Assembly: GCA_963744905.1 (NCBI GenBank)
Contig: CAVUUV010000004.1
Location: 102,360 to 166,359 of the forward strand
Length of the DNA: 64,000 bases
Direction of reading: 5' to 3'
DNA from: an uncultured Acidimicrobiia bacterium
GTDB taxonomy: Bacteria; Actinomycetota; Acidimicrobiia; Spongiisociales; ZC4RG35
The translations under genes and the position numbers were made by a program. This document shows, piece after piece, positions 3,422-52,596 of this stretch (the stretch's first letter is position 1; each line of letters begins with the position of its first letter). The notes below the pieces were generated by a model. The model saw only the letters and a list, made by a program, of their open reading frames with translations. It had not been told where the DNA came from and ran no database searches.

Positions 3422-3461
3422 CATCTGGGAACCGCATTCGCCTCGACAGCGTCGGAGCGCC

Positions 3462-10752: not shown

Positions 10753-10822
10753 CCTCCACGACCTGAAGGATCTCGACCGTCCGGAGCACCTATTCGAGCT
10801 GACCCACCCCGATCTGCCGGTC

Positions 10823-15611: not shown

Positions 15612-15649
15612 CCCTCAATTATGGGCGTAATCGAGCCGGTCGCGCGGCC

Positions 15650-16126: not shown

Positions 16127-16218
16127 CGAATACCTCCATTACTAGACCCTTCTTCCACCTCATCATTTGACCGCACCCGTCTCGCGACTAGAGGCGAAGG
16201 TAACGAAAACGGGCCGCC

Positions 16219-35432: not shown

Positions 35433-35676
35433 TCTTCTCCCTCAGCTTCTCTCTCCCAACCGTACTCTTCGACCCGAGGGTGTGGGCGCGAAGACTATGA
35501 GTCTTCGCGGGGACTCGTCCGGCGACATCCCCTCCGCCGGGGCGTTTCGTCCCGGCTTCCAGTCGTGGTGGTAACCGAGATCGTTTCAGCCCGGCTCCGC
35601 CGGCGTCCGGGAGGCTGGCCCGGCCAATGAACGCACCCGTCCAGGGCCGGAGTACCCCCCGACCTCGTCGATGCCG

Positions 35677-36715
35677 TCAGATGAGCAGACGGTCCTCGTA
35701 CTCGACCCGGGACAGGAGGTGGGGCTCGCCGTCGGTGATGAGGATCATGTCCTCGATGCGGACCCCGCCCCCTCCCGCGCACCTCGGGGACCCAGACGAG
35801 GGGTTCGACTGCGAACACCATGTTGGGCTGGAACTGATAGACAGTGGCTCCGGGCAGAGTTTCGCCTATGTACGGAGGCTCGTTGGCGCCCATCCCTATG
35901 CCGTGCCCGATGAAGAGGCTGAACAGATGATCCTCGAGCCCATGATCTGCGACCTTGGCGATGATGGCGTCAGCACAGTCCTGATTGGTGAAGCCGGGCC
36001 GCATCTTCTCCACACCCGCCATCAGCCCCTCGTATACGGCCGTGTAGATCTTCTGCTGTTGTCTGGATGGTCGCCCCACGACCGTCGTCCGGCCGATATC
36101 GGCGAAATAGCCATTCCACATGGCGCCGATGTCGATGAAACACAGGTCCTGATTTCTGATGATCTTGTCCGTGGCGAGACGGTGAGGCGGGGACATGTGC
36201 TCTCCCGAGGCCACATAGGGGGTGATCACATGGGCCATCTCGCCTCCGAGACGGAAAAGGGTCTGCATGGCGTCGGCGGCCACTTCGAGCTCGCGCCGAC
36301 CCGCCCTCGTCTCGTCCAGAGCTCTCTGCGTGACAGAGTCTCCGATTGCGCAGGCCTCCTCGATCACCGCCACCTCGAGATCTGTCTTGATCCACCGCGC
36401 CTCGTGCATGATGGTGTCTCCGTCCACTACCTCCACATCGGGCAGGTGGGAGCGAAGAGCCTCGATGAACGAGATATTGGCCTGATCGACGGCCAAGACC
36501 CCCGTCTCGCGCTCGCGCAAGAGGGGCGCCAGCGTCTCCTTCACGAAGCCGTCGACCAATTCCCGTTGTTCCATGATGGGAACTGCATGGGCGGCGCCAA
36601 GCCAGCTCATCCCGTACCCGGCCTTGTCGATCTCTCCTCCCGAGGCCAGCAAGATTGGGTCCTCGTCGGAGAACAACAGGGCTCCGTTCAGGGAAGTCGT
36701 CTTACCGGCGATCAA
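35677..36715 (-). CDS. M24-family metallopeptidase/hydrolase (Xaa-Pro peptidase/creatinase fold), apparent frameshift near 35770
   Basis: The pita-bread-fold metal ligands lie in …DIGAMWNGYFADIGRT… and …HGIGMGANEPP…. The C-terminus …GVRIEDMILITDGEPHLLSRVEYEDRLLI* is readable in another frame after a G/C-rich run. Confidence 0.7.
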
Positions 36716-36954: not shown

Positions 36955-38004
36955 TCATGGCTCTGGCACGTCCTGCAGCCGGTCGGAAATATCCAGCCGT
37001 TCGGCCACCTGCCGGAGTTGGTCGAGGAGGACGTCGGGAACCGGAATCCCTCTCCGGCGCTGAGCGACCTCCAACTCGATGGCACCGTCTCCGGGAAGAC
37101 GCACCGCTCCCGGCGGGCCGGCGGATCGAAGCGCCCCCAGATGCTCATCCACGGCCAGCTCGAACTCGTCCTGGGGCCGCATGAGATCGGGACGGAGCAC
37201 GAGGATCGCCTGGCCGGTGTTTGCCACCTCATCGGCCACCGCCCGATGGTCGATGACCTCGGCGCCGAAGGCCGCTCCATTGAGGACGCCGGCGAGCATA
37301 CCGATGGCCACATTGAGGCCCGACCCCTTGTAGCCACCGATCGGCATGAGAAAGCCCTCGTCTGCTCGGGCCGGATCCGTGATCGGCTGACCCCCGGAGT
37401 CGACGACCCACCCTTCCGGCAACGTCTGGCCGGCCTGTGCGAGCACCTTGATCGTCCCGTGCGAGGCCACGGTCGTGGCGATATCGAGCGCGAAGGTACT
37501 GGTGTGACCCGGAATGGCGATCGAGATGGGATTCGTGCCCAGCAGCCTCTGATCGCCTCCCCACGGTGGCATCACGTTGGCGCTCGCCACCGCCATGTAG
37601 ATGGCGATGAAACCCTCCCGCGCAGCCATCGTGGTGTAGACGCCGGCGGCACCGGCGTGGTTGGAGCGGACGGTGCCGACCCAGGCCATGCCCGATTCCC
37701 TTGCCTTGGCAATGGCCGTCTCGACCGCACGGGTCATGACTACCTGCCCGAGTCCATTGTCCCCGTCCACCAACGCCGAGACCGGCGTGTCCCGGGTGCA
37801 CACGATGCTCGGACGCAGATTGATTCCCCCCGCTTCGATCCTGGTGACATAAGGCGGCACCCGAATGATGCCGTGGCCCGTCCGCCCTCTGAGGTCCGCC
37901 TCCAGAAGGCGCTGGGCCGTGATCCGGGCCTGATCTGGCATGACGTCCAGGCTGGTGAACACATCTTCGACGAAGCTCTGGAGGCGCTCCAGTGAGAACC
38001 TCAT
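36955..38004 (-). CDS. Ldh_2-family oxidoreductase (malate/L-lactate dehydrogenase family 2; ureidoglycolate/sulfolactate/Pyr2C-reductase-like)
   Basis: 349 aa. The …RTGHGIIRVPPY…HAGAAGVY… pattern matches the Ldh_2 family. Confidence 0.75.
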   Translation of the reverse strand: MRFSLERLQSFVEDVFTSLDVMPDQARITAQRLLEADLRGRTGHGIIRVPPYVTRIEAGGINLRPSIVCTRDTPVSALVDGDNGLGQVVMTRAVETAIAKARESGMAWVGTVRSNHAGAAGVYTTMAAREGFIAIYMAVASANVMPPWGGDQRLLGTNPISIAIPGHTSTFALDIATTVASHGTIKVLAQAGQTLPEGWVVDSGGQPITDPARADEGFLMPIGGYKGSGLNVAIGMLAGVLNGAAFGAEVIDHRAVADEVANTGQAILVLRPDLMRPQDEFELAVDEHLGALRSAGPPGAVRLPGDGAIELEVAQRRRGIPVPDVLLDQLRQVAERLDISDRLQDVPEP

Positions 38005-38384
38005 TGCTGGAACTGCTCCACGGTCTCGCCCGTATCGGCAAACGTGCGGGTCACGTGCGTGTCCCCGTAAACCCAGAGGATTCGCATCCTGGAAGTGCCG
38101 CTGTTGATGAAGCGATGAAGCTCGCCGGGAGCGATCTGAGTCGTGTCATAGGGAACCGCTGGTCGTTGTTCGCCTTCGAGTTCGGCCAGACCCTCCCCTT
38201 CTATGACGGTCACCTGCTCGATCGTGTTGTGACTGTGAAGGCGAATCGAGGTTCCGGGCGGAAAGGTCGTGATGCCCATGGTGAAGCGTTGCCCTTGCAG
38301 CGGCAGGGGCGTCAGGCGCACGCTTTCGATCCCGTTCCCCCTCTCAACGGGTTCACTCTGGTCGAACTTCAGCAATCTGGCCAT
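38001..38384 (-). CDS. Cupin-domain protein
   Basis: 127 aa with two His-containing cupin motifs (…HSHNTIEQVTVIEGEG… and …GELHRFIN…). It overlaps Ldh_2 by 4 nt. Confidence 0.7.
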   Translation of the reverse strand: MARLLKFDQSEPVERGNGIESVRLTPLPLQGQRFTMGITTFPPGTSIRLHSHNTIEQVTVIEGEGLAELEGEQRPAVPYDTTQIAPGELHRFINSGTSRMRILWVYGDTHVTRTFADTGETVEQFQQ

Positions 38385-38408
38385 CGTCTCTCTCCTAGGG
38401 CTCGCGTG

Positions 38409-39152
38409 TCATGCCATGAACCTGCCCCCATTGACCGACACGGTCTGACCGGTCATGAAACTCGCCGACGGAGAGGCGAGGAATACCACCCACCGTGCGA
38501 TCTCATCGGGGCTCTGGTACCGGCCCAGCGGGATGGAGGCCGCCGTGGCACGGCGTTCCTCTTCGTCACGGACCTTCTCGATGCGCTCGGTCAGCACCGC
38601 CGACGGTGCCAGCGCGTTCACCGTTATCCCCAACGGGGCCAACTCGGAGGCCATGACCCTGCTGAGGGCGTGGACGCCCGCCTTGGCGGCCGCATAAGCC
38701 GGTGTGGTCCGATAGGTTGCCACCTGGCCGGCCAGAGAACCCAGATTGACCACGCTTGCCGCCGGCGAGCAACGCAGCCAGGGCAGCGCCGTCTGCGTCA
38801 TCAAGAAGACCGAGGTCAGGTTCAAATCGAGCGTCGCGTGCCATTCCGACAACGGGGCATCGGCCAGGCTCCTCTGGGCTGAGAAGCCGCCGGCATTGTT
38901 GACCAGCACATCCACCCGTCCCTCCGCATCGCCGATCTGTTGCAGGGCAGCCCGAACTTCGTCCGCCGAGGTGACATCGCAACCGATGAACCGCACCCTG
39001 GTGGTGTCTCGGGCCAGTTCGGTGCCCCTATCCGCATCGACATCCAGGGCGTAGACGAGATCTCCCTGGGCGGCGAAGGCAGTGACGATGGCTCGACCGA
39101 TGCCGATTGAGGCTCCGGTGACGATCACCACCCGCTCGTCGGCGGCACTCAC
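38409..39152 (-). CDS. SDR-family oxidoreductase
   Basis: The TGASIGIGRAI Rossmann motif and a YAAAK active-site motif are present. Confidence 0.85.
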   Translation of the reverse strand: MSAADERVVIVTGASIGIGRAIVTAFAAQGDLVYALDVDADRGTELARDTTRVRFIGCDVTSADEVRAALQQIGDAEGRVDVLVNNAGGFSAQRSLADAPLSEWHATLDLNLTSVFLMTQTALPWLRCSPAASVVNLGSLAGQVATYRTTPAYAAAKAGVHALSRVMASELAPLGITVNALAPSAVLTERIEKVRDEEERRATAASIPLGRYQSPDEIARWVVFLASPSASFMTGQTVSVNGGRFMA

Positions 39153-40069
39153 GACGCCACCAGCATCAGGATCTCATCGGAGACGGCAGATCGGGCCATG
39201 GCCATGGCGCCCTGTGACGCTTCGAGGAAGGAAGCTCTCTCTTCGTCGCCCAGATCGACGAAATGGGCCCCTTCGGCCTCCATTCGGCGACGGAGGGACT
39301 CCTCGTACCCGGCGGCGGCTATCCGCTGGACGGAAACGGCCGACCGTGCCCCCTCGGCCACGACTCGCCTGATCTCGGGCGAAAAGGACTCCCAGGTTGG
39401 CCGGTGGGCGAAGAGGCCCCGCGCCCCGTACAGATGCCCGGTCATGGTGACATGCGGATGGACCCGGTCGACCCCGTAGGCAACGGTGTTGGCCAGCGGA
39501 TTCTCCTGGGCATCCACCTTTCCATCGACGATCAAGCCGATTCCATCCTGAAGCTCCGCCGCAACCGGGACCGCACCCCACGACTCGAACAGTGCGACGT
39601 GGAAGGCGTTGGGCTGAAGCCGGACCGTCAGGCCACGACAGTCATCTGGGGTGCGAATCGGGCGCAACCGGTTGGTGAGATGACGAAACCCGTTGTCCCA
39701 AAACCCCAGCACCTCGAATCCGGTACTGGAGGCGACCGATTCTCTCAACGCCCCCCCGAGGCCACCGTCCAGCGCCTCGTGGGCCTGCTTTAGGTCTGCG
39801 AACAGGAAGGGGACATCGAGGACGTTGAGGTCGGGGACCCGGCTCCCCAGGTAGCTGCACGAGAAGTAGCACATGAACATCTCCCCCGCCTCCACCAGCC
39901 GGAACAGATCTGTGTTGGGCCGGCCCTCGTCCATGATGTTGTAGTTGATGGCAACACTCACCTGGTTGGCTGTGGCGGATTCCACGAACCGGCCGAAGGC
40001 GGCCAGGCCCTGGCCGTGGGCGCTTTCTCTGGGTCCATAGCCGCCGATGTGCAGTTCGATCTGGCTCAT
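39149..40069 (-). CDS. DctP-family (TRAP solute-binding protein) homolog with no signal peptide
   Basis: Core TRAP SBP motifs are conserved along the whole length (…LDVPFLF…GFWDNGFRHLTN…DGQENPLAN…). The ORF begins directly with the mature-domain sequence. An upstream stop leaves no room for a leader, and the gene is 77 bp from the divergent neighbour. Confidence 0.65.
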   Translation of the reverse strand: MSQIELHIGGYGPRESAHGQGLAAFGRFVESATANQVSVAINYNIMDEGRPNTDLFRLVEAGEMFMCYFSCSYLGSRVPDLNVLDVPFLFADLKQAHEALDGGLGGALRESVASSTGFEVLGFWDNGFRHLTNRLRPIRTPDDCRGLTVRLQPNAFHVALFESWGAVPVAAELQDGIGLIVDGKVDAQENPLANTVAYGVDRVHPHVTMTGHLYGARGLFAHRPTWESFSPEIRRVVAEGARSAVSVQRIAAAGYEESLRRRMEAEGAHFVDLGDEERASFLEASQGAMAMARSAVSDEILMLVAS

Positions 40070-40146: not shown

Positions 40147-41382
40147 ATGGCTCAAGAACCTTGGAAGACCGAGCAATGGTTTTCCAGTCCCTGGAACTAC
40201 CTACCGGAGGTCACAGAGGGGTTTCAAGTTCCCGACGAGGTACGTATCCACGATGTGACCTTGCGGGACGGGGAGCAGCAGGCCGGTGTCGAGTTCACCG
40301 CCGACGAGAAGGTGCAGATCGCCGAAGCGCTCGCCGAGGCCGGTATTCATCGCATCGAGGCGGGCTTGCCCGCAGTCTCCCCGGCCGACAAGGAGGCCAT
40401 CGAGCGGATGGTGGCGGCCGAGCTGCCGACAGAGATCTATGCCTTCAGCAGATGCCTGGTCTCGGACGTGGAATTGGCCCTCGATTGTGGGGTGTCGGGT
40501 GTGGTGATGGAGGTTCCCGCCAGCCATCACTTGATCGAGAAGGCTTACCGGTGGCCGGTGGAAAAGGCGATCGACGCCTCCGTCGAGGCAACCAAGTACG
40601 CCCACGACAATGGGCTCAAGGTGACGTTCTTTCCCATCGACGCCACGAGAGCGACGATGACCCAGCTCCTCGATGACCTCGAGACGGTGGCTACCAATGG
40701 TCATGTCGACAACATCGCCCTCGTCGACACCTTCGGAGTGACGTCTCCCCATGCCATCCGCTACTACACCCGCAAAGTCCGAGAGCGTTTCCCTGGCGTG
40801 CCGCTCGAGACCCATTTCCACATGGACTTCGGTATGGGGGTGGCGAACACGGCCCTGGCCGTGACAGAGGGCGCCTCCGTTCTCCACACCACCGTCAGCG
40901 GGATCGGCGAGCGGGCCGGAAACGCTCCCACGGAGGAGACGGTGCTGGCCCTTTTGACCATGTACGGAATCGACACCGGCATCAACACGGAGAGGTTCAC
41001 CGACATCGCACGACTGGTGGCCGAGCTCTCGGGTGTCACCCAGCCCGCCAATCGCCCGGTCACCGGCGAGATGCTGTACAACGTCGAATCGGGCATCATC
41101 GCCACCTGGGTCAACAACGTGGGCGACGAGCTGCTCGAGCCCTTCCCTTACCGTCCCGAGCTGGTCGGCCAGGCCGACCCGAGCATCGTCCTCGGAAAGG
41201 GCTCGGGGCTCGACTCCATTGCCATCTGGCTGGCCCGGCACGGCATCAACGACGCCGAGACCAAGGAGATCGAGGCGATCCTGGCCGAGGTGAAGGGTCG
41301 GTCTTTGGCCAAGAAGGGCCTGTTGGACGACGACGAATTCCTCGACGTCGTCCGCCAAGTCATCCCCGACAAGGTCAACTGA
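40147..41382 (+). CDS. DRE-TIM metallolyase (HMGL-like/pyruvate carboxyltransferase domain; IPMS/homocitrate synthase/4-hydroxy-2-oxovalerate aldolase-like)
   Basis: DVTLRDGEQ… and …HFHMDFGMGVANTLAA… are hallmark motifs of the family. Confidence 0.75.
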   Translation: MAQEPWKTEQWFSSPWNYLPEVTEGFQVPDEVRIHDVTLRDGEQQAGVEFTADEKVQIAEALAEAGIHRIEAGLPAVSPADKEAIERMVAAELPTEIYAFSRCLVSDVELALDCGVSGVVMEVPASHHLIEKAYRWPVEKAIDASVEATKYAHDNGLKVTFFPIDATRATMTQLLDDLETVATNGHVDNIALVDTFGVTSPHAIRYYTRKVRERFPGVPLETHFHMDFGMGVANTALAVTEGASVLHTTVSGIGERAGNAPTEETVLALLTMYGIDTGINTERFTDIARLVAELSGVTQPANRPVTGEMLYNVESGIIATWVNNVGDELLEPFPYRPELVGQADPSIVLGKGSGLDSIAIWLARHGINDAETKEIEAILAEVKGRSLAKKGLLDDDEFLDVVRQVIPDKVN

Positions 41383-41409
41383 AAACAGGCGTCTGAGGGA
41401 GCAGTATTC

Positions 41410-42648
41410 ATGCGAGAAGCATTTTTCGGTCTGAGCACCGACTGGAAGGAAGGGATCAACTGGGCCAACGTCAGGGACTGGCGGCTCAAGAGGGCGCACG
41501 AGGCCATGGAGCGGCACGGTCTCGGGGCGCTACTGCTGTTCTATGACGAGAACATGCGATACGTGTCGTCGACCCTGACGCCCGGGTGGAACCGTCTCAA
41601 GCCCGGTCTGCGCTACGTGGTGCTGCCGGCGGGAAAGCCTCCCATCGTGTACGAGCAAGGCGACATCGGCATGCACCTCGAGGTCCACAATCCATGGATC
41701 CCAAAGGAGAACATCCGCCACTCCTACATATGGATCAAGGGAGCCGTCGGTCCGGCCGCCGACCAACAGGTCACGAAGTTCGTGGACGCCCTCTTGAACG
41801 ACCTGGAGGAGGCCGGGGTCCGGGATCAACCACTCGGAGTCGACTTCATCGACATCAACCTCTTGCGGGCGTTTCAAGAACGGGGAATCGAATGGACCGA
41901 TGGTATGTCGCCCATGATGGAGGCGAGGGCCATCAAGTCCCCCGACGAGATCAAGGCGTTTCAGATCGTCGGAGCCATCTGCGACCGGGTGCACTACGAG
42001 ATAACGAACTTCATGAAACCCGGCATGACCGAGAACGAAGTGGCGGCTTTTGGATTCGAGCAGCTCTACTCGATCCCGGGGATGGAAGACGTCGAGGACG
42101 TCATCGTGTCTTCGGGTCCCAACGCCTGGCCCAACTGGCGCAACTTCTCCGACCGCATGATCCGTCCTGGCGAGCTCGTCATCATCGACCTGGCCGCTCT
42201 GACCTGGAACGGGTTCAAGTCCTGCGTCTATCGAACCTACTGCGTGGGCGGCAAACCCACCGATGAGCATCAGCAGGCCTACGACATGGCCCACAAGTGG
42301 CTGTGGGATTCGATCGAAGCCACCAAGCCCGGGGTAACGACAGCCGACGTCGCCTCCAAATGGCCCTCGGCCAAGGAGGCATGGGGATACGAGGAAGAGG
42401 ACCGTGCAGCAGCCAACAACTGGGGCCACGGGCTGGGCCTCGCCCAGTACGACCCGCCGGTGATATCCCGGATCTGGTCCCTCGATCACCCGGTCGAGAT
42501 CCAGCCGGGCATGACCTTCGCTCTGGAAACCCAGCATGGCAAGGTACACGATTACGGGGTGCGTCTCGAAGAGATGATCTACGTCACGGACACCGGCATC
42601 GAGCTCGTATCGACGTACAAGAACCACGAGATCATCGTCATCGACTGA
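41410..42648 (+). CDS. M24-family hydrolase (creatinase/prolidase/ectoine-hydrolase-like fold)
   Basis: It has a creatinase-like N-domain plus pita-bread C-domain (…IIDLAALTWNGFKSCVYRTY…HGLGLAQYDPP…ETQHG…). Confidence 0.75.
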   Translation: MREAFFGLSTDWKEGINWANVRDWRLKRAHEAMERHGLGALLLFYDENMRYVSSTLTPGWNRLKPGLRYVVLPAGKPPIVYEQGDIGMHLEVHNPWIPKENIRHSYIWIKGAVGPAADQQVTKFVDALLNDLEEAGVRDQPLGVDFIDINLLRAFQERGIEWTDGMSPMMEARAIKSPDEIKAFQIVGAICDRVHYEITNFMKPGMTENEVAAFGFEQLYSIPGMEDVEDVIVSSGPNAWPNWRNFSDRMIRPGELVIIDLAALTWNGFKSCVYRTYCVGGKPTDEHQQAYDMAHKWLWDSIEATKPGVTTADVASKWPSAKEAWGYEEEDRAAANNWGHGLGLAQYDPPVISRIWSLDHPVEIQPGMTFALETQHGKVHDYGVRLEEMIYVTDTGIELVSTYKNHEIIVID

Positions 42649-42658
42649 CGCCAGGGTC

Positions 42659-44341
42659 GTGCGATATCCCGATCGACTGGCCGCTGCCCATCTGAGCCCT
42701 GAAGGGTCGCTGCTCATCGGGCTCGACGACGATCGCTGTCTCGATCACCGGCTGGTCGGCGCCAAGGCGGCCCGGCTGGCCAGGGCACGCCGGACAGGAA
42801 TCCCGGTCCTTCCCGGATTCGTCGTGAACGGTTCCGCCTCAACCCACCACATGAAGATCGGCGCCGCTGCGCTGACCAGGCGGGGCTCGGGAGGGGCACG
42901 CCTGGAGATGATGTCCGAGCCTCTGCCCATCGCCGACGATCTGGTCGCGGCCGGATCCCGTCTCGGTCCCCGGCTGGTGGCCCGCTCCTCCACCAGTCTC
43001 GAGGCATCGGGCCGGTGGTCGGGCGCCTTCACCTCGTATCTGGACCTGACTCCCGACGAACTGCCCAGGGCGATCGTCGGATGCTGGGCGTCGGCCTTCT
43101 CCGTGCAGGCAATCAGCCGGCAGCGAGCCGAGAACATCGAGCCCGGCTCCTTCCCGATGAGCGTTCTGGTCCAACCTGCCCTGTCTCCTGCGTCGGGCGG
43201 GACGGCGATGCTCGACGAGGGGGGGCGGGTGACGGTCCATACCGTCGAGGGCTCACCCGCCCCGCTGCTCCAGGGGTGGTCACAGGGTGCTGAGGCACGA
43301 TGGGACGGCCGGTGGATCGGCGAAGAGGCCATCTCCCTGCTGGGAGCCGACCGACTCGACGCCATCGCCTCGCTCCTGAGGCGAGCCCACCAGGTCGTCG
43401 GTGCCGACCGCTGCGAATGGGCACTGGACGACGACATCTGGATTCTGCAGTTGGACTCCGTACCCGCTCCCCCAGCCCTCGATCAGTTCATCGCCCAGCC
43501 TCGAGAACTCGACCCCATTCTGCTCGATGTGGCACGCACGGTTACCAGAGCCCCGGGCGCCCTCGGCGAAGAACTCGTTCTCCCCTGGGCTCTGGCGGGC
43601 CTCCCCCGAACCCTGACATCCTCCGTCGAGAGGCCGGCGACTGCGCTGGCCCGAGCCCGCCACCTGTGCGAGGAGTTGACGGCCGAAGTATGGGGATGTG
43701 CCGCCCCCCAAGCGCGATCATTGGCCCTGGAAACCCTGGAACGACTTCGCACCGGCGATCCCTCACCTGCGCTGGCCCGCATCCGGCGGCTTCGTCCCCC
43801 CGACACAGCGAAGGCGACGACGCTTCTGTCCCTGGTGGACGGCATGCGCCAGGCCCTGGTAGGACTGGGCGCTTTCCCCGACCCCGGCTCGGCCTGGTAC
43901 GCCACGACTCACGAGGTCGAACGGGCGGCACAGAAGACCCCCACAAGTGCGGTCGACCGCGTCGGTGTCTCCGGCTGGGAACCTTTCGTGGCCTCCGTAG
44001 TCCTGGCCGGAGGACACCGTCACCGGGGCACCCCGGCGGCCCCCGGCATCGGGGCGGGCCGACGGCACTCGATCAATGGACCCGACGAGGCCGCCTGGTT
44101 CTCGCCCAGGGAAGTGATCGCCACTCCACAACCCGTCCCCAACCTGGCCCCGTTCCTGTGGGATTCGGCGGGATTGGTGACAGAATCGGGATCCCCGGCC
44201 GCCCACCTCTTCGAGTCCGCCCGGTCTCTGGGAGTACCGGCTGTGTGTGGAGTGTCGTCGGGGGAGACCGACGACGAGATCGTGGCGGTGGACGGCTATT
44301 CGGGAGTCGTCTCTACCACTCCCCTGTTCGGAGAAGCATGA
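42659..44341 (+). CDS. PEP-utilising-enzyme family protein: PPDK_N (ATP-grasp) domain + C-terminal mobile phosphohistidine domain, with no PEP/pyruvate-binding TIM barrel
   Basis: The N-terminal …LVGAKAARLARARRTGIPVLPGFVV… resembles the PEP synthase/PPDK nucleotide-binding region. The C-terminal …ESGSPAAHLFESARSLGVPAVCGV… resembles the swivel phospho-His domain. The protein ends about 60 residues later. Confidence 0.65.
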   Translation: MRYPDRLAAAHLSPEGSLLIGLDDDRCLDHRLVGAKAARLARARRTGIPVLPGFVVNGSASTHHMKIGAAALTRRGSGGARLEMMSEPLPIADDLVAAGSRLGPRLVARSSTSLEASGRWSGAFTSYLDLTPDELPRAIVGCWASAFSVQAISRQRAENIEPGSFPMSVLVQPALSPASGGTAMLDEGGRVTVHTVEGSPAPLLQGWSQGAEARWDGRWIGEEAISLLGADRLDAIASLLRRAHQVVGADRCEWALDDDIWILQLDSVPAPPALDQFIAQPRELDPILLDVARTVTRAPGALGEELVLPWALAGLPRTLTSSVERPATALARARHLCEELTAEVWGCAAPQARSLALETLERLRTGDPSPALARIRRLRPPDTAKATTLLSLVDGMRQALVGLGAFPDPGSAWYATTHEVERAAQKTPTSAVDRVGVSGWEPFVASVVLAGGHRHRGTPAAPGIGAGRRHSINGPDEAAWFSPREVIATPQPVPNLAPFLWDSAGLVTESGSPAAHLFESARSLGVPAVCGVSSGETDDEIVAVDGYSGVVSTTPLFGEA

Positions 44342-45216
44342 TGTCTGCGCGGGTGGGAATCATCGGGCTCGGGGTCATGGGTGCCGCCATGGCCAAGAAT
44401 CTCCTCGCGGCCGATCATGAAGTACTCGGGTTCGATCTCGCTCCCCACAGGAGACAGATCGCCACCGACGCCGGTGTCAGCGTCCTGGCGAATGCGGCTG
44501 CGGTGGCCAAGCGAGCAGACACGGTCGTCTTCTCCCTTCCCACCGTCGAGGCCCTGGCGGCGGTGGCCGACGAGGTCGCCGCCAATGCCCATGCCGAATT
44601 GCTCTGCCTCGAAACCGGCACGTTCCCGCTCGTCGCCAAGTTCTCTGCCCGCGATGTGCTGGCGGCAGCCGGGATCGAACTGATGGACACGGCGCTGTCG
44701 GGCACCGGCCTACAGGCAGCAGACGGAACACTGGTCGTGTTCGCATCGGGAACGCCGGAAGCGTTCGAACGAGCCCAGCCGGTCTTCCGTGCCATCGGCC
44801 GGTCAACGCATTACCTGGGGGAATTCGGCAACGGCTCCAGGATGAAATACATCGCCAACCTTCTGGTGACCATCCACAACCTGGCCACCGCCGAGGCCCA
44901 CGTTCTCGGAATGGCCGCCGGAATGGACCCCGCCGTCGTCCAGGAGGTGATGGAAGACGGCGTCGGCTCCTCGAAGATCTTCGAGATCAGGGGCCCGATG
45001 ATGGTCGCCGGCGATTACCCGGCCGCGGCCCGGCTGGACATCATCCTCAAAGACGCCCGCATCATCGAAGACTTCGCCCAAAGCGTGGGGGCTCCGACCC
45101 CGCTCCTCGATGCGGCGCTCGAGGTCTACACCCGGACCAGCGCAGCCGGTATGGGGGATTTCGACGCGGCCGTCTTGTTCGAGTACCTACGCAACCAAGC
45201 CGGACTCGAACGATGA
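44338..45216 (+). CDS. NAD(P)-dependent oxidoreductase, 3-hydroxyisobutyrate/6-phosphogluconate dehydrogenase-like (HIBADH family)
   Basis: RVGIIGLGVMGAAMAKNL is an NAD-binding motif. The length is 292 aa. Its start overlaps the upstream stop in an ATGA arrangement. Confidence 0.8.
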   Translation: MMSARVGIIGLGVMGAAMAKNLLAADHEVLGFDLAPHRRQIATDAGVSVLANAAAVAKRADTVVFSLPTVEALAAVADEVAANAHAELLCLETGTFPLVAKFSARDVLAAAGIELMDTALSGTGLQAADGTLVVFASGTPEAFERAQPVFRAIGRSTHYLGEFGNGSRMKYIANLLVTIHNLATAEAHVLGMAAGMDPAVVQEVMEDGVGSSKIFEIRGPMMVAGDYPAAARLDIILKDARIIEDFAQSVGAPTPLLDAALEVYTRTSAAGMGDFDAAVLFEYLRNQAGLER

Positions 45217-47498
45217 TCGGTCGGCCGCTTCGCCGCCTCGAGGATTCCCATCTGATCACCGGCAGAGGACGTTACGTCGACGACATCTCACTCCCCTCCA
45301 CGGCCCACGCCGTCTTCGTCCGTAGTGTCGAGGCCCATGCCCTGATCCGATCGGTGAGCCTCGACCAACGCGACGCCGGTCGGGCCCGACTCTTTGGGCC
45401 TCGCGAGCTCGGCCTGACGGCCCCGGTCCAGAACCAGCATCCCTCCCCACTGATCGAGCGCTCCACACAGGCTCCACCCCTGTCCGACCACGAGGTGTGC
45501 TTCGTTGGCCAGCCGATAGCCGTGGTCGTGGCTCCGACGGCTCAGGAGGCAACCGATGCAGCCGGTGCCGTTCTGATCGACTACGAACCGCTCCCGACGA
45601 TGACAGATCATCGTCGGGCATTGGACGTAGATGCCCCTCCCGTGCATTTGGGAGGTGACGGCAACCTCATCGCCACTCTCAGCGCCTCCTTCGGCGAGGT
45701 CGAGGCCGGGTTCGCCACAGCACCTCGAAGGCTGGCCCTGGACGTGGATCAACACCGGGGGGCGGGCGCCTCGATGGAGGGCCGGGCGATCCTGGCTAGT
45801 TGGGAAGAGGGAGAGCTGAAGCTGTGGACTTCGACGCAGGCACCCTATGCGGTTCGAAGCCATCTGGCGTCATATCTCGGTTTGAAGCCCGATTCCGTAA
45901 GGGTGATCGCACCGGATGTCGGGGGTGGCTTCGGGCCGAAGGCAGCCGTCTACCCCGAGGAGTACGTCGTTGCGGCCCTGGCCATTCATCTGAGACAACC
46001 CGTCAAGTGGATCGAACAGCGCCGCGAGAACTTCACGGCCACCTACCAGCAGCGCGGCCAGAGCGGCCGGATCGAGGTGGCCTTCGACGACAACGGAAGG
46101 GTCCTGGCCCTTCGCGCCCACCTCACACACGACTGCGGTGCCTTCGTGCCTTACGGGATCGTGGTCCCCATGACAACGCTCCGTCTGATGTCGGGCCCCT
46201 ACCGGATCCCCGCCCTGGAGGCGACGATCGAATGCGTGTTCACCAACGCCACTCCGACCGCAGCCATCAGAGGGGCCGGCCGACCCAATGCCTGCTTCGC
46301 GCTGGAGCGGACGATGGATGCGATCGCCCGATCGCTGAACCTGGAGAGGGAGACGATTCGGCGTCGCAACTTCATACCCGTCGATGCCCTTCCCTATCAG
46401 GTCGATATCCCCGGCTCGGACGGTCGGCCCATCACCTACGACAGCGGAGATTTCACCCGGGCGCTCGATGCGGCGCTGGAGGCGGCGCGAATCGACGATT
46501 TCCCGAGCCGCCGGGAAGTCTCGGAGCGGAGCGGCCTTCGGCGCGGATACGGCATCGCCTCGTACATCGAAGACACCGGGATGGGCCCCTTCGAAGGAGC
46601 CCGGATCGAGATTCTCGCCGGCGGAGAGGTCCTGGTCGAGACCGGAGCCGGAGCCCAGGGTCAGGGACATGAGACCGTCTTCGCCCAGATATGTGCCCAG
46701 CACCTGGGCGTCGAACCGGGCCGAGTGAGGGTCAGGAGTGGAGACACCGCCTTCTACAGCCACGGCGTCGCCACCGTTGCCAGCAGGACCGGTCAGACCA
46801 CGGCCGCCGCCGTCAGCGTGGCGGCCGAAGAGCTCGCTTCGATCACCAAGGAACTGGCTGCCGACGAGCTCGAGGCTGCATTCGAGGACATCGCCCTCGA
46901 AGGGGGCATGGCCATGGTTGTCGGCCAACCTGGTACCGAGATTCCCTTCGCCGACCTGGTGAGCCGCCTGTCCCGGGCGGATGCGTTCCCCACCCGTCTG
47001 CGAAGGCCCGGGCTCTCGGTGGAACGGGTCGTCCCCTTCGGCGGACTCGGATTCACATACGGGACCCACGTCGCCGAGGTCGAGGTCGATCCCGAGACCG
47101 GACATGTCAGGGTGGTCGGATACATCGTGGTCCACGACTGTGGCACGTTGATCAACCCGATGATCGTCGACGGCCAGATCGACGGCGGGGTGGCGCATGG
47201 ATTGGGTAACGCTCTGATGGAGCGCGTCCAGTTCTCCGACTCCGGCCAGCCGCTGACGACTTCTTTCATGGACTACCACCTGATGACGGCGGTTGAGATG
47301 CCGCCCTTGGTCAAGACGCACACCGTTACGCCCTCTCCCAACAATCCTCTTGGAACAAAGGGGGCTGGCGAGGGCGGCACGATCCCGGCGGCTGCCGCCG
47401 TGACATCGGCCGTCGAGCACGCTCTCTCCGACCGGGGTGTGATCGTGAATCACTACCCGGTTGAGATGCAGTGGGTGCAGAAGGCCGCCACCGGCTGA
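45213..47498 (+). CDS. Xanthine-dehydrogenase-family molybdopterin-binding large subunit (CoxL/aldehyde-oxidase-like)
   Basis: 761 aa. The N-terminal …RLEDSHLITGRGRYVDD… region and the Mo-cofactor domain motifs (…GGGFG…, …GEGGT…) are present. No small or medium subunit genes are adjacent. Confidence 0.85.
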   Translation: MIGRPLRRLEDSHLITGRGRYVDDISLPSTAHAVFVRSVEAHALIRSVSLDQRDAGRARLFGPRELGLTAPVQNQHPSPLIERSTQAPPLSDHEVCFVGQPIAVVVAPTAQEATDAAGAVLIDYEPLPTMTDHRRALDVDAPPVHLGGDGNLIATLSASFGEVEAGFATAPRRLALDVDQHRGAGASMEGRAILASWEEGELKLWTSTQAPYAVRSHLASYLGLKPDSVRVIAPDVGGGFGPKAAVYPEEYVVAALAIHLRQPVKWIEQRRENFTATYQQRGQSGRIEVAFDDNGRVLALRAHLTHDCGAFVPYGIVVPMTTLRLMSGPYRIPALEATIECVFTNATPTAAIRGAGRPNACFALERTMDAIARSLNLERETIRRRNFIPVDALPYQVDIPGSDGRPITYDSGDFTRALDAALEAARIDDFPSRREVSERSGLRRGYGIASYIEDTGMGPFEGARIEILAGGEVLVETGAGAQGQGHETVFAQICAQHLGVEPGRVRVRSGDTAFYSHGVATVASRTGQTTAAAVSVAAEELASITKELAADELEAAFEDIALEGGMAMVVGQPGTEIPFADLVSRLSRADAFPTRLRRPGLSVERVVPFGGLGFTYGTHVAEVEVDPETGHVRVVGYIVVHDCGTLINPMIVDGQIDGGVAHGLGNALMERVQFSDSGQPLTTSFMDYHLMTAVEMPPLVKTHTVTPSPNNPLGTKGAGEGGTIPAAAAVTSAVEHALSDRGVIVNHYPVEMQWVQKAATG

Positions 47499-47522
47499 GT
47501 CCGCCAACCAAAGGAGACAGGC

Positions 47523-48302
47523 GTGGACCTAGGAATCTCGGGCAAGAAGGCCCTGCTGACGGCATCCAGCCGGGGCCTGGGCAAAGCCTGTGCCATTGCC
47601 CTGGCAGCAGAAGGAGTGAACGTGGTCATCAACGGCAGGGACGAGGCCACCCTGGAGGCGTCGGCCGAAGAGATCAGGCACCGATTCGACGTAGAGGTGC
47701 TGGGCGTCCCCGCCGACATCAACTCCGATCAGGGCCGACAGAGTCTGCTGGAGAGCTGCCCCGATCCCGACATTCTCGTCAACAACAACTGGGGGCCTCC
47801 ACCAGGCGCTTGGGAGGACTTCGAATACGACGACTGGCTGGGAGCCGTAGAGGCGAACATGCTGGCACCGATAATGATGATCAAGGGGGTGATCGCCGGG
47901 ATGAAGGAGAGGCGCTTCGGGCGAATCGTCAACATCACCTCCCAGATGGTCAAGTCACCCTTTCGGGTGATGGGACTCTCGGCCGGCGCCCGTACCGGGC
48001 TGACTGCCGCAGTGAAAGTGCTGTCCCGTGATGTGGCCCGCTTCAATGTCACCATCAACAACCTCCTCCCTGAACGGATAGACACCGAACGTCAGGTGTA
48101 CATGGCCAGGAGGCAGGCCGAATCCGCCGGTATCACCTATGAGGAGGCGCGGCGCCAAATCGTCGACAGCATCGCCGCCCAGCGCATGGGCCGGCCCGAG
48201 GAATTCGGGGCCGCCTGTGCCTTCTTGTGCGGCGCCGACTCGGGATACATCTCCGGCCAGAACCTGCAGCTGGACGGGGGATCCTATCGAGGCACGTTCT
48301 GA
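47523..48302 (+). CDS. SDR-family oxidoreductase (3-oxoacyl-ACP reductase-like)
   Basis: The Gly-rich loop is TASSRGLGKAC and the family core is present. The likely start is the GTG at 47523. Confidence 0.75.
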   Translation: MDLGISGKKALLTASSRGLGKACAIALAAEGVNVVINGRDEATLEASAEEIRHRFDVEVLGVPADINSDQGRQSLLESCPDPDILVNNNWGPPPGAWEDFEYDDWLGAVEANMLAPIMMIKGVIAGMKERRFGRIVNITSQMVKSPFRVMGLSAGARTGLTAAVKVLSRDVARFNVTINNLLPERIDTERQVYMARRQAESAGITYEEARRQIVDSIAAQRMGRPEEFGAACAFLCGADSGYISGQNLQLDGGSYRGTF

Positions 48303-48432
48303 CTGCCATAGGGCAGGGCGAGACGGCGAGCCCCGGGACTCCGCAGCGCCTGACGGCGACCTATCCAGCCGTCTCGACCACCGCATCGAACGATCTCCTG
48401 GCCAGGCCGGTCTCACCCGAAACGGCTGCTAG

Positions 48433-49704
48433 TTGAAACCCAACCTCCTCAAATGGGGGCGGCGGGCGGTAGTGGACGTCCGGCCGCTCCGGCTCGTTCC
48501 CGGATACAGATGGCTGTTCGCCGGGCTGTTCTTCGGACAGGCAGGACGGCAGATGACGGTGGTGGCCGTTCCGTTCCAGGTGTTCGAACTGACCGGATCC
48601 ACCCTGGCGGTGGGTCTGCTTGGTCTCACTCAGCTCGTGCCGCTGCTGGTGGTATCCCTGGTTGGAGGCGCCTTGGCCGATGCGGTGGATCGCCGCAAGC
48701 TTCTTTCGTTCTCACAGGTGATTCTCGCCCTGACCGGGGTCGGCCTGTTGTGGAATGCCGCCGCCGACTCTCCCCTCCTCTGGCCACTCTTCGTCCTCAG
48801 CGGGCTGAATGCAGCGGTTTCGGCCGTCGACTCTCCCGCCCGCCAAGCCGTGCTGCCGGGCCTGGTGGGGCGCGGGCTCCTCCCATCCGCTCTGGCCCTC
48901 AATCAGACCCTCGGGAACGTGGCCAAGGCGGCCGTGCCGGCCGCCGGCGGTCTCCTGATCGCCACGGCCGGACTTCCGTTCAGCTACGGCGCGGTGACTG
49001 TCATGTTCGTCGCCAGCGGCATCTTGTTCTACCGGATTCCCAGCCTTCCCGTCGAGGGAGGAAAAGGACGTTTCAACATCTCCTCGATCGTCGACGGCCT
49101 CCGTTATCTAGGGTCCCGTCGACTCATCCAGGCGGCCATGCTCATCGACCTCAACGCGATGGTGTTCGGAATGCCCACTGCCCTATTCCCCGCCATCGGT
49201 ACCCAGATCTTGGACGGGGACGCCTTCACGGTCGGCCTGCTCTACGCCGCCCCCGGGGCGGGAGCCCTCTTCGCTGCCCTCACTTCGGGCTGGGTTGCCT
49301 CGGTTCGTCGCCACGGCCGAGCCGTGATCATGGCCGTCATCGGATGGGGCCTGGCCATCGCCGTGTTCGGCCTGACCGCCTCGACCGCTCTGGCCCTTGC
49401 GATGCTGGCGATCGCCGGCGGCGCAGACGTCGTGTCCGCCATCTTCCGGAACACCATCGTCCAGATGTCCACCCCCGACGCGTTCCGGGGCCGGCTGATG
49501 TCGATGCACATAGCGGTAGTGGCGGGCGGGCCCCGGCTGGGAGACCTGGAGGCAGGGGTGGTCGCCTCGCTGGCCTCGATCAGGTTCTCGGTCGTCTCGG
49601 GTGGGATCGTGTGTGTCCTCGGTGCCCTGGCAATTACCCGCTGGGCGCCTTCTCTGGCCGCATACAGCTACGAGCCCGACGGCGGCGGCGCGATGGCACC
49701 GTGA
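48433..49704 (+). CDS. MFS transporter (EntS/efflux-like)
   Basis: 423 aa with 12 TM helices and an N-terminal basic region. Confidence 0.8.
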   Translation: MKPNLLKWGRRAVVDVRPLRLVPGYRWLFAGLFFGQAGRQMTVVAVPFQVFELTGSTLAVGLLGLTQLVPLLVVSLVGGALADAVDRRKLLSFSQVILALTGVGLLWNAAADSPLLWPLFVLSGLNAAVSAVDSPARQAVLPGLVGRGLLPSALALNQTLGNVAKAAVPAAGGLLIATAGLPFSYGAVTVMFVASGILFYRIPSLPVEGGKGRFNISSIVDGLRYLGSRRLIQAAMLIDLNAMVFGMPTALFPAIGTQILDGDAFTVGLLYAAPGAGALFAALTSGWVASVRRHGRAVIMAVIGWGLAIAVFGLTASTALALAMLAIAGGADVVSAIFRNTIVQMSTPDAFRGRLMSMHIAVVAGGPRLGDLEAGVVASLASIRFSVVSGGIVCVLGALAITRWAPSLAAYSYEPDGGGAMAP

Positions 49705-49756: not shown

Positions 49757-50755
49757 TCAATCCAGGCCGAACAGCCTCATGGCAGTCCCCCCCGAGATGG
49801 CGGCACGCTGGTTGGAGTCCAGGCCACCGGTCTCGGCCAGCAGGCCCACCGGGTCGGTCTCGCTCATATCGAAGGGGAAGTCCGTGCCGAGCATGACCCG
49901 TTCCGGCCCAACCACCTCGATCAGATGCCGGAGGTAAAGCGGCTGAAAGACCATCGTGTCGTAATAGAGCTGCTTCATGTAGTGACTGGGCGGGTGCTCG
50001 GGAATCCGTACCCGTGTCTCCGGTCTGACCTTCCACGTGTGATCGGCCCGGGAACAGTAGAAGGGGAGATAGCCGCCGCCGTGGAGCAGCAACAGCTTGA
50101 TCCCGGGATGGTCCTCGAACAGCCCACTGAAGATCATCCGGGTGGCGGCCACCATGGTCTCGAGGGGATTACCGATGCAGTTGACCAGGAAGTAGTCGGA
50201 GAGACGCTGCCCCTCCGGATAGCCGCTGGGGTGGAGGATGACCGGTACGCCCTTGGACGCCACGGCTGCCCAGAAGGGCCGGAACCGGGGCTCATCCAGG
50301 TTTCGCCCGTCGATCGTTCCCCCTATCTGGACTCCCTTGAAGCCCAACTCATCGACGGCCCGATCCATCTCGGCGATGGCCAGATCGATGTCCTGCAAGG
50401 GCAAGGTGGCCCCGATGGGGGCGAACCGATCCGGATGCTCGGCCGCCACCGTCGCCAGGTTGTCGTTCTGAATGCGGGCAGACTCGGCCGCGGCCGGACC
50501 CGGCGCCCAGTAGAAGTACTCCGATACGAAAGTGGCCAGACCTTGCAGTTCTATGCCCATCGCATCCATCAGCTCGAGCCGTGCCGACGGAACCGTCAGG
50601 GCGGCCTCGATGCTGGGAAACATCTCCTGGTTCTGTTCTCTGGAGGTCCGATTCATGAAGTAGTCGTAGGGCTCGAACTCAGGCCGCCGGTGTATCTCGA
50701 CCGGGGCCCTGGCGGAGGGAGTAGCGAGATGGCAATGGACGTCGATGGTCTTCAT
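49757..50755 (-). CDS. Amidohydrolase-2-family enzyme (ACMSD-type metal-dependent decarboxylase/hydratase-like)
   Basis: The N-terminal IDVHCHL motif, an internal …HPSGYP… and a …LLLHGGGY…GTDFPFD motif match PF04909 proteins. Confidence 0.8.
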   Translation of the reverse strand: MKTIDVHCHLATPSARAPVEIHRRPEFEPYDYFMNRTSREQNQEMFPSIEAALTVPSARLELMDAMGIELQGLATFVSEYFYWAPGPAAAESARIQNDNLATVAAEHPDRFAPIGATLPLQDIDLAIAEMDRAVDELGFKGVQIGGTIDGRNLDEPRFRPFWAAVASKGVPVILHPSGYPEGQRLSDYFLVNCIGNPLETMVAATRMIFSGLFEDHPGIKLLLLHGGGYLPFYCSRADHTWKVRPETRVRIPEHPPSHYMKQLYYDTMVFQPLYLRHLIEVVGPERVMLGTDFPFDMSETDPVGLLAETGGLDSNQRAAISGGTAMRLFGLD

Positions 50756-50796: not shown

Positions 50797-51786
50797 GTGG
50801 AGCGGGAGACGCGCCACATGACCGGGTCGCTTCGGGATCTGATCTGGCGGTCTCAGGAGGGTGAGCGCCACGAGCGACGCCTCAACACGATCGTCGTGTA
50901 TCTGCTCCTGGCGACCGTGGTGGTGGTGCTGGGCTTGAACTGGCCGATCATGGCCACGGGCCTGAGATCCATCACTCCGGTGTGGATGGCGGTTTTCCGT
51001 GTCGCCGGCGCCGCGCTCGTCGTCACCACCATCACCGTCTCCACCGGTAGGTTTCACCTTCCGCCCCGACGTGACCTCCCGATCATCGTCTCACTGGGGA
51101 TCTTTCGTCTGGCGGCGGTCTTCCTCCTGGTCTTCACGGCCCTCAAGCTGGTGCCGGCGGGACGAGCATCGGTAGTCGTATGGACCACCTCACTGTGGAC
51201 GGTGCCCATCGCCGCCATCTTCCTGGGAGAGACGATGAACCGGCGCAGATGGATGGGGCTGGCAATTGGCATCACCGGCGTGGCGATTCTCTCACAGCCC
51301 TGGAGTCGGGATTGGACCGAGCCCGGCATCGCGTTGGGTCACGGGTTGCTGATTCTGGCCGCCATCACCAACGCCGCCACCTCGGTGCACATTCGCGCTC
51401 ACCGTTGGACCATCACTCCCCTGGAGGCCATCCCATGGCAACTGGCCGGGGCGGCCATCCCACTGGTCGTGCTCGGGCTGGTGATGGAAGGGCCGCCGGT
51501 CATCCACTGGACTGCCCAGCTGGCATGGATCGTCGCCTATCAGGGGATGCTCGCAACGGGAGTGGCGTTCTGGGCCCAGATAGTGATCCTGCGGAATCTC
51601 GCCGCCGTCTCCACCAACCTGACCCTGATGGCGGTCCCCGTGGTGGGCGTCATATCGTCGGCGGTGTTGTTGCAGGAGTCGATAACCGGCTCCCTGGCGA
51701 TGGGGATGGTCCTGGTCATCGTCGGCGTGAGCCTCAATCTCCTCTCCGATCAGGGACAGGGACGAGAACGGATCCCGGACGGGTAA
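50797..51786 (+). CDS. DMT-superfamily (EamA-like) transporter
   Basis: It has 10 TM helices and two EamA repeats. The true start may be the ATG at 50818. Confidence 0.7.
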   Translation: MERETRHMTGSLRDLIWRSQEGERHERRLNTIVVYLLLATVVVVLGLNWPIMATGLRSITPVWMAVFRVAGAALVVTTITVSTGRFHLPPRRDLPIIVSLGIFRLAAVFLLVFTALKLVPAGRASVVVWTTSLWTVPIAAIFLGETMNRRRWMGLAIGITGVAILSQPWSRDWTEPGIALGHGLLILAAITNAATSVHIRAHRWTITPLEAIPWQLAGAAIPLVVLGLVMEGPPVIHWTAQLAWIVAYQGMLATGVAFWAQIVILRNLAAVSTNLTLMAVPVVGVISSAVLLQESITGSLAMGMVLVIVGVSLNLLSDQGQGRERIPDG

Positions 51787-52479: not shown

Positions 52480-52596
52480 ATGGTTATCAATGCTAACTGT
52501 GGACCGGCTCCATCGTGTGGATGCTCGCCGCCCCGGGAAGCGATCGAGCCGGTGGGAGCGAGGCATCTACGATCTCGTCAACAACCCACAGGAGTC

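Follow-up and report, generated by a model that had tools for sequence, protein, structure and literature searches.

Where does a dikinase deliver its phosphoryl group if it appears to have no domain that could hold an acceptor? This question is raised by a gene of an uncultured Acidimicrobiia bacterium (contig CAVUUV010000004.1, positions 102,360 to 166,359; these 64,000 nucleotides are referred to as the window). Its product, which we call DIK, combines the ATP-grasp and phosphohistidine swivel domains of the phosphoenolpyruvate (PEP)-utilizing enzymes and lacks the TIM barrel of PEP synthase (PEPS) and pyruvate phosphate dikinase (PPDK). DIK represents a new, uncharacterised family inside the known superfamily of PEP-utilizing dikinases. 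The defining and previously unreported trait of this family is its near-obligate coupling to a hyper-conserved M24 protein that resembles the dimethylsulfoniopropionate (DMSP) lyase DddP. We tentatively propose, with a little less than even confidence, that the two proteins form a two-component ATP-dependent enzyme, in which DIK would pass phosphate from ATP to a histidine and donate it, while M24 would supply the acceptor site in trans.

Architecture and conservation of the barrel-less dikinase

The gene and its domains lie at the following positions of the window.

42659-44341, plus strand: barrel-less dikinase-like protein (DIK), 560 aa, GTG start at 42659, stop codon ending at 44341
42713-43456, plus strand: ATP-grasp domain of DIK, residues 19-266 (PPDK_N match, invariant columns, AlphaFold2 model, Foldseek)
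43514-44011, plus strand: all-helical middle domain of DIK, residues 286-451 (AlphaFold2 secondary structure, alignment gaps and occupancy)
44015-44323, plus strand: phosphohistidine swivel domain of DIK, residues 453-555 (Pfam PEP-utilizers match, alignments to 9DAE, 8A8E and 5FBS, conservation)

The initial annotation had read this open reading frame (ORF) as a 560-aa protein that joins a PPDK_N ATP-grasp to a swivel His domain and has no barrel, and both an ORF check and a Pfam scan bore this out. Residues 31-183 matched PPDK_N (PF01326; E 3.6e-11, 43.4 bits, cut-off 27) and residues 482-549 the PEP-utilizers mobile domain (PF00391; E 8.6e-11, 41.7 bits, cut-off 23.1); the scan of the whole protein gave no match to the PEP-utilizers_C barrel (PF02896). 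The PPDK_N match spans just profile positions 2-185 of 328. In the AlphaFold2 model, built from 59 sequences (mean predicted local distance difference test score 87.7, predicted template modelling score 0.70), residues 1-15 are disordered and are followed by a complete ATP-grasp (19-266, through Q264), the helical domain and finally the swivel domain. The latter half of the ATP-grasp is thereby predicted to be present, though it falls outside the PPDK_N match. Residues 1-18 form a lineage-specific disordered extension, and most orthologues begin at the position of residue 19.

A Foldseek search with the model returned rifampin phosphotransferase (RPH) structures as the top matches (5HV1, 5HV3, 5FBS; best E 1.2e-21), with HpeI, PPDK and PEPS next, so that the kinship to RPH first suggested for this protein was confirmed at the level of fold. 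Matches to the ATP-grasp included the RPH ATP-binding domain (5HV6), HpeI (9GOJ) and PEPS (2OLS). The catalytic histidine, which was to be sought by alignment, is His516 (codon CAC, 44204-44206). It lies in the stretch TESGSPAAH516LFESARSLGVPAV and aligns with the swivel His of the PEP synthases 9DAE and 8A8E, the best sequence matches of this domain, and with that of RPH (5FBS). The C-terminus follows 44 residues beyond His516. The figure of about 60 residues after the mobile-domain motif in the initial annotation was thus approximate, and its conclusion that there is no barrel holds; the string quoted there, AVCGVSSGETDDEIVAVDGYSGV, corresponds to residues 528-550 and stops 10 residues short of the C-terminus.

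The ATP-grasp and the swivel His of DIK are homologous to those of PEPS and PPDK. Conserved in the ATP-grasp are K36 (in GAKAA), R109-S110-S111, E115, W143 (in CWAS), Q172, E253-W254 and Q264. E253-W254 and Q264 occupy the places of the Mg ligands of ATP-grasp dikinases and are invariant in the family alignment. Across 119 DIK orthologues, conservation is at least 98% for K36, R109-S110-S111, E253 and H516 and at least 70% for Q172 and Q264. The motif RGSGGAR (residues 75-81) is specific to the family. Unlike PEPS and PPDK, DIK has no regulatory Thr two residues ahead of the catalytic His (its sequence is S-P-A-A-H). The Arg that follows the Mg-binding Gln in PPDK (LQxR) is likewise not kept (ILQLD).

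A search of 5.8 billion clustered proteins yielded more than 464 homologues. The best 120 have lengths of 471-594 aa and identities of about 50%, and each of them shows the two Pfam domains of DIK; the homologues are labelled merely "PEP-utilizing enzyme" or "PEP/pyruvate-binding domain-containing protein". Among the GTDB species-representative genomes, 151 contain relatives, and nearly all of these are metagenome-assembled genomes of Acidimicrobiia from soil, sediment, seawater and sponges. Compared with the closest relative (locus L005), DIK has a ratio of nonsynonymous to synonymous substitutions (dN/dS) of 0.27, similar to that of the neighbouring HIBADH gene (0.30). The gene is intact, under purifying selection, and no pseudogene.

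These data bear directly on the possibility that DIK is a truncated pseudogene or an assembly artefact of a PEPS or PPDK, or one part of a split enzyme with its barrel encoded elsewhere. The PPDK_N match that stops at position 185 of the profile would fit such a truncation, but the modelled ATP-grasp runs through E253 and Q264, and the DIK stop codon shares nucleotides with the start of the next gene, which is conserved. An orthologue is called as two ORFs in one Phytohabitans assembly (see below), yet the number and spread of the homologues, the conserved catalytic residues and the dN/dS value all speak for a functional family. PEP-utilizers_C was absent from the cluster genes and the window's ten largest other ORFs, and likewise from nine neighbourhoods with gene calls. 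Truncation or splitting is therefore effectively refuted, and neither of the two findings that the initial annotation had named as fatal to its reading, an intact barrel or a pseudogene, was encountered.

No part of the protein varies more than the helical middle domain. In DIK it comprises 165 residues, with a motif LPWALAG (308-314) and a W345 that are conserved in the Acidimicrobiia clade; about 30 residues of it are deleted in many Acidimicrobiia members. Many orthologues outside the Acidimicrobiia lack it altogether. These proteins of 365-490 aa consist of ATP-grasp and swivel alone and match the family profile only at positions of about 13-254 and 412-537; they nevertheless follow the same M24 gene and keep K36, R109-S110-S111, E253, Q264 and H516. 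Against RPH, the helical domain gave no significant sequence match, only a -3.3-bit stretch to RPH residues 688-719, which joins its end to the last helices of the RPH central domain. Since many orthologues do without the helical domain while keeping the catalytic residues, a self-contained, RPH-like kinase is not the best reading of the family. Judged by its sequences, the family as a whole appears to have no conserved domain able to hold an acceptor. This is our main argument: because such a domain seems to be missing, His516~P would deliver its phosphate outside the polypeptide.

All NCBIfam matches of DIK, its M24 partner and their neighbours fall below the cut-offs of the curated families, so that annotation names no substrate. 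For DIK, the scores and cut-offs in bits were 47.3 and 739.75 for TIGR01418, 50.1 and 598 for NF005057, 33.2 and 999 for the RPH model NF041857, 50 and 1350 for the RedH model, and 42 and 1300 for the PigC model. The 534-position short PPDK model NF004531, which we take to stand for the length class of Rv1127c, matched only the swivel domain (32.7 bits, cut-off 456).

Pairing with a hyper-conserved M24 protein

The gene directly upstream of DIK encodes its partner.

41410-42648, plus strand: DddP-like M24 (pita-bread) protein, 412 aa, stop codon 10 nt before the DIK start

We compared 83 dikinase-anchored loci by tblastn with the proteins of the window's cluster. An M24 gene lies directly upstream of the dikinase in 74 of them; most of the others have a contig end at the dikinase gene or just ahead of it, and locus L055 is a clear exception. 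Viewed from the M24 side, 61 metagenome loci have 600 bp or more of sequence downstream of M24, and 60 of these carry a dikinase homologue directly downstream. The pair is also present on a 4.7-Mb metagenome-assembled contig and in the cultured Actinomycetes Phytohabitans suffuscus (dikinase of 418 aa) and Salinactinospora qingdaonensis (559 aa). A full-text literature search found no report of this pair. The initial annotation had named hydrolases in the neighbourhood as loose context and had overlooked the upstream M24 gene as a near-obligate, coupled and highly conserved partner.

The two genes are closely spaced. We scored the dikinase start at position 1 of the family profile and found a start codon there in 79 of 109 pairs (loci L001-L168). 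TTG (42) and GTG (31) make up 73 of these 79 starts, and only 6 are ATG; weak starts at the M24 stop codon are strongly enriched. Of the 79 pairs, 65 have the dikinase start -4 to +9 nt from the M24 stop; in the window the gap is 10 nt, and the DIK start is shifted 18 codons upstream. As judged from sequence, such spacing is that of classic translational coupling, and the weak TTG and GTG starts suggest that the dikinase is made in lower yield than M24.

The partners evolve at strikingly different rates. In 118 pairs, M24 is 412 aa long in 117, while the dikinase ranges from 365 to 583 aa. Identity to the window protein is 77-93% for M24 (median 88%) and 30-53% for the dikinase (median 45%), and dN/dS relative to L005 is 0.011 for M24, far below the dikinase value. 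Clustering at 50% reduces the M24 clade to a handful of representatives and leaves more than 100 for the dikinase. Half of the M24 columns are invariant across 119 sequences. The genes differ in composition as well: in the window, DIK has a GC content of 0.687 and a GC content at second codon positions (GC2) of 0.572, being rich in Ala, Gly, Arg and Pro, and M24 has values of 0.606 and 0.400. A simple gene caller based on GC3 (third codon positions) minus GC2 missed the dikinase, HIBADH and CoxL genes of the window. The dikinase was missed because its GC2 is unusually high (0.57), a limit of the heuristic and not evidence against the gene.

Two observations concern the integrity of individual pairs. 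In the complete genome of Phytohabitans suffuscus, AP022871.1 (L086, 10217-11472), gene calling gave two dikinase ORFs, 195 and 232 aa long, and in another assembly that encodes an identical M24 protein (L085, 10217-11473) the dikinase is a single ORF of 418 aa; the split stems from a frameshift or sequencing error, or else the gene has recently decayed. The single junction-spanning match to the joined M24 and dikinase sequences, P0366, was considered as an M24-dikinase fusion and rejected as an Arg-rich read-through artefact.

The closest solved relatives of the M24 partner are the DMSP lyases DddP (4S00, 4RZY, 4B28; E 2e-27), followed by prolidases. Its alignment with DddP, a metalloenzyme that acts on a small carboxylate, covers the full length, both the N-terminal and the pita-bread domain, at a low identity of roughly a quarter as read from the alignment. 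With 114.7 bits against a cut-off of 600, the DddP model NF043017 scores far too low for DddP itself, and we therefore call the protein DddP-like. DddP holds two metal ions by Asp295, Asp297, Asp307, His371, Glu406 and Glu421 (PMC4108388). The equivalents in the M24 partner are D260, A262, C272, H340, E373 and E387, all in invariant stretches. Two of the six ligands thus differ from DddP (Asp297 to Ala262, Asp307 to Cys272), and four of the five canonical M24 ligands are kept, with C272 standing for the Asp307 equivalent. The partner is accordingly predicted to keep an unusual D-C-H-E-E metal site. DddP differs further in lacking a dikinase partner. A dikinase neighbour is also absent from M24 relatives at about 40% identity (P0266, P0275), so the pairing defines one hyper-conserved clade; these relatives retain the Cys, which is therefore not specific to the pairing. 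A role of this Cys as a dedicated phospho-acceptor seems unlikely on these grounds.

The gene neighbourhood

In the window, the pair sits within an apparent operon whose order is HMGL-like, M24, dikinase, HIBADH-like, CoxL-like, SDR (short-chain dehydrogenase/reductase), with intergenic gaps of -4 to +27 nt. The remaining genes of this operon are listed first, followed by a divergent set and by genes that recur with the module.

40147-41382, plus strand: HMGL-like protein (DRE-TIM; isopropylmalate/homocitrate/citramalate-synthase-like, without regulatory domain), first gene of the operon
44341-45216, plus strand: HIBADH-family dehydrogenase, ATG at 44338 or 44341, overlapping the DIK stop codon
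45213-47498, plus strand: Mo-hydroxylase large subunit (CoxL-like or glyceraldehyde-dehydrogenase-alpha-like), overlapping the HIBADH stop by 4 nt
47523-48302, plus strand: SDR oxidoreductase, last gene of the apparent operon
36955-38004, minus strand: Ldh_2 dehydrogenase, divergent set
38001-38384, minus strand: small cupin, divergent set
38409-39152, minus strand: SDR, divergent set
39149-40069, minus strand: DctP solute-binding protein of a tripartite ATP-independent periplasmic (TRAP) transporter, divergent set
49757-50755, minus strand: Amidohydro_2 protein, recurs with the module
50797-51786, plus strand: EamA transporter, recurs with the module
51787-52566, minus strand: GntR/FCD regulator, recurs with the module

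A consensus scan found no terminator-like site at 40200-48600 and no promoter or terminator inside the operon, and there was no Rfam match to a riboswitch or other RNA at 34-54 kb of the window. The HMGL-like protein is 65-98% identical across the compared loci and is encoded upstream of M24 in 64 of the 83; the divergent set (36955-40069) is syntenic in about half of them. The best match of the HIBADH protein, below threshold, is L-threonate dehydrogenase (172-179 bits for the HIBADH-like enzymes, cut-off 350), and its other matches are tartronate-semialdehyde and sulfolactaldehyde reductases. Loci of the soil Actinomycetes type run in the order HTH (helix-turn-helix)-cupin regulator, CocE/NonD hydrolase, M24, short dikinase, GFO/IDH/MocA protein, HIBADH-like protein, Amidohydro_2. 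Common to the loci are M24 and the dikinase, an L-threonate-dehydrogenase-like HIBADH protein, Amidohydro_2, organic-acid uptake systems and FCD-type regulators. No other kinase was present among the cluster genes examined. By homology, the enzyme classes of this island point to a small (C3-C6) hydroxy- or oxo-carboxylate as the substrate.

Several further features of these regions were recorded. Beside Ldh_2 lies another M24 gene (35498-36712, minus strand; about 405 aa), distinct from the partner gene; it is PepQ- or ectoine-hydrolase-like and scores 139 bits against NF040821 (cut-off 630). L004 has a similar extra M24 gene at its edge, whose cluster is found again in 11 loci. The CoxL-like gene (45213-47498, and likewise in L001, L003 and L004) has no adjoining gene for a 2Fe-2S small subunit or an FAD medium subunit, and no DctQ or DctM gene was present among the adjacent cluster genes scanned around DctP (39149-40069, minus strand). 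About 10 kb downstream of the module, at 53633-55845 (minus strand), a family III CoA-transferase (succinate-glutarate/oxalate CoA-transferase-like) and an enoyl-CoA hydratase are encoded, for which conservation with the module was not seen in other loci. A homologue of HpaB-type 4-hydroxyphenylacetate 3-hydroxylase (1073-2797, plus strand) and an 839-aa STAND/AAA_16 NTPase (10658-13174, plus strand) appear unrelated to the module. In the Acidimicrobiia locus L002, the M24-dikinase-HIBADH trio is near GRDB/Gly_reductase genes (glycine/sarcosine/betaine-reductase-like) and a VapBC toxin-antitoxin pair (1111-3470, minus strand; 15648-16275, plus strand).

A possible acceptor site in trans and its alternatives

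How might the pair work? By homology with PEPS, PPDK, RPH and PpsAB, ATP would bind the ATP-grasp of DIK through K36, R109, E253 and Q264, and His516 would take its beta-phosphate with release of AMP and Pi. The swivel domain would then carry His516~P to the acceptor site. M24 is the one protein that is almost always present, and the DIK family has no conserved acceptor domain of its own; we therefore propose M24 as the acceptor site. The pairing, the rate asymmetry, the nature of the partner and the dispensable middle domain all suggest that this site would be the M24 metal site, reached in trans, and the pita-bread domain would then replace the TIM barrel of PEPS and PPDK or the rifampin-binding domain of RPH. 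An imported small hydroxy- or oxo-carboxylate would be activated by phosphorylation and then eliminated, hydrolysed or cleaved at the metal centre. The module would serve a catabolic island with TRAP, ATP-binding cassette or major facilitator superfamily uptake, GntR/FCD regulators, hydroxy-acid dehydrogenases, Amidohydro_2 and an HMGL-like lyase or synthase. The substrate-activating kinase role put forward in the initial annotation is plausible in this light, with the difference that the acceptor site is more likely to lie in trans on M24.

A more specific version of this proposal, which we consider possible but doubtful, makes M24 the acceptor module of a split dikinase: His516~P would phosphorylate a hydroxy-acid at the Cys-containing M24 site, and the DddP-like centre would then eliminate or cleave the phospho-intermediate. 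In concrete form, the pair would be a kinase and beta-eliminase acting on a 3-substituted 2-hydroxy acid, for example converting 2-phospho-3-sulfolactate to PEP and sulfite. Such a reaction would be the phospho-analogue of the conversion of DMSP to acrylate and dimethyl sulfide.

Phosphohistidine modules that act in trans have precedents in the transfer from Enzyme I to HPr in the phosphotransferase system and from DhaM to DhaL. Within the dikinase superfamily, each known system resembles DIK in part. RPH and PigC/RedH/HapC share the order of N-terminal ATP-grasp, helical middle and C-terminal swivel, and presumably the chemistry (ATP to AMP, Pi and His~P, then to the acceptor). RPH differs in that it has a large acceptor (rifampin)-binding domain between ATP-grasp and swivel (PMC4844700), where DIK has 165 helical residues and many orthologues have none, and in having no obligate partner protein. 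HpeHI and PpsAB are two-component dikinases, with a large acceptor domain on the His-carrier subunit HpeH or PpsA (PMC12167813). RPH, PigC/RedH, phenylphosphate synthase, HpeHI and CreHI thus own a third, large acceptor-binding domain, and the description of RPH and phenylphosphate synthase as two-module relatives in the initial annotation has to be corrected (PMC4844700, PMC12167813). Like DIK and its proposed partner, PpsAB, HpeHI and CreHI are superfamily modules that act in trans as separate proteins in catabolic pathways. Their split, however, lies between an ATP-grasp subunit and a subunit with swivel and acceptor domains, whereas DIK fuses ATP-grasp and swivel and lacks the acceptor module or receives it in trans; moreover, the window cluster has no aromatic-catabolic carboxylase.

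A parallel in minimal architecture is VadK (Rv1127c), a barrel-less PPDK of Mycobacterium tuberculosis that autophosphorylates and co-purifies with enzymes encoded nearby (PMC13400623). VadK and DIK have in common an ATP-grasp and a His domain, no PEP/pyruvate barrel, and a gene near interacting enzymes. VadK descends from PPDK, and DIK is set apart from it by way of the stand-in model NF004531 and not of the VadK sequence itself. The partners of VadK are methylcitrate synthase and dehydratase, whereas DIK is accompanied by M24, HMGL-like and HIBADH proteins and no prpDC; furthermore, vadK is not stop-start coupled to the genes of its partners. This parallel raises the alternative that DIK is a regulatory histidine kinase, which would autophosphorylate at His516 according to ATP/AMP status and bind or phosphorylate M24, perhaps also the HMGL-like protein, tuning flux without carrying out chemistry. 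We consider it quite unlikely. The minimal architecture is the same as that of VadK (PMC13400623), but DIK is no sequence relative of the short PPDK type, matching NF004531 only with its swivel and far below cut-off. Its fast evolution, drifting composition (GC2 0.57 versus 0.40 in M24) and TTG or GTG starts are typical of low-abundance accessory proteins, and M24 relatives at about 40% identity manage without a dikinase; near-universal, stop-start coupled adjacency in two actinobacterial classes nonetheless resembles the pattern of subunits more than that of regulators. The vadK gene, by comparison, is near its targets with the regulator gene rv1129c listed between (PMC13400623). A regulator that spends two phosphoanhydride bonds per cycle would also be costly.

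A second alternative takes DIK for a stand-alone small-molecule dikinase like RPH, PpsAB, HpeHI or PigC, which would itself bind and phosphorylate a pathway intermediate, and M24 simply for the enzyme of a neighbouring step, acting on the free metabolite in phosphorylated or unphosphorylated form; this we regard as unlikely. RPH is the top structural match and has the same domain order, but the 165-residue helical domain is much smaller than RPH's rifampin-binding domain or its counterpart in HpeH and has no significant sequence similarity to either; what links it to RPH is the weak, non-significant match between the ends of the helical and RPH central domains. The motifs of the helical domain are conserved in the Acidimicrobiia clade, yet no other region of the protein is so poorly conserved, and many orthologues that retain the M24 partner and the catalytic residues do without it. 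The cluster is otherwise without a kinase, its dehydrogenases are similar to those of acid-sugar pathways in which one is required, and neighbouring genes often encode consecutive steps. The NCBIfam models of RPH, PigC and PEPS, on the other hand, remain far below their cut-offs.

Several points also weigh against an acceptor site on M24. We know of no M24 enzyme that accepts a phosphoryl group from a protein. Complex formation with M24 and phosphotransfer to it are inferred from indirect evidence. The fast evolution of the dikinase and its 73 TTG or GTG starts among 79 fit a low-abundance accessory or regulatory protein no worse than a stoichiometric subunit. No natural M24-dikinase fusion occurred among the best 150 matches when the joined proteins were used as a query against 1.84 billion representatives, and in the complete Phytohabitans genome two ORFs stand in place of one dikinase gene. 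Finally, the Acidimicrobiia form, that of the window included, keeps a helical domain with the motif LPWALAG and W345, which could bind a ligand.

Barrel-less members of the superfamily have been recognised only recently, as enzymes that confer antibiotic resistance (RPH) or initiate aromatic catabolism (PpsAB, HpeHI) and, in VadK, as a regulator of metabolism. The architecture of DIK by itself no longer surprises; what does surprise is its pairing, the difference in rates between the partners and the possibility that an M24 enzyme is driven by ATP. Because the pair occurs in at least two cultured Actinomycetes, the hypothesis is directly testable at the bench. If M24 is indeed the acceptor module, the pair would be, as far as we know, the first ATP-dependent M24 enzyme, and a function would be at hand for an M24 protein whose identity stays at 77-93% in two actinobacterial classes. 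The module abounds in Acidimicrobiia from soil, marine and sponge habitats that lack cultured representatives, and the DIK family would add to the superfamily a fourth solution, in which a minimal ATP-grasp and phosphohistidine carrier is nearly always encoded beside a non-homologous metalloenzyme.

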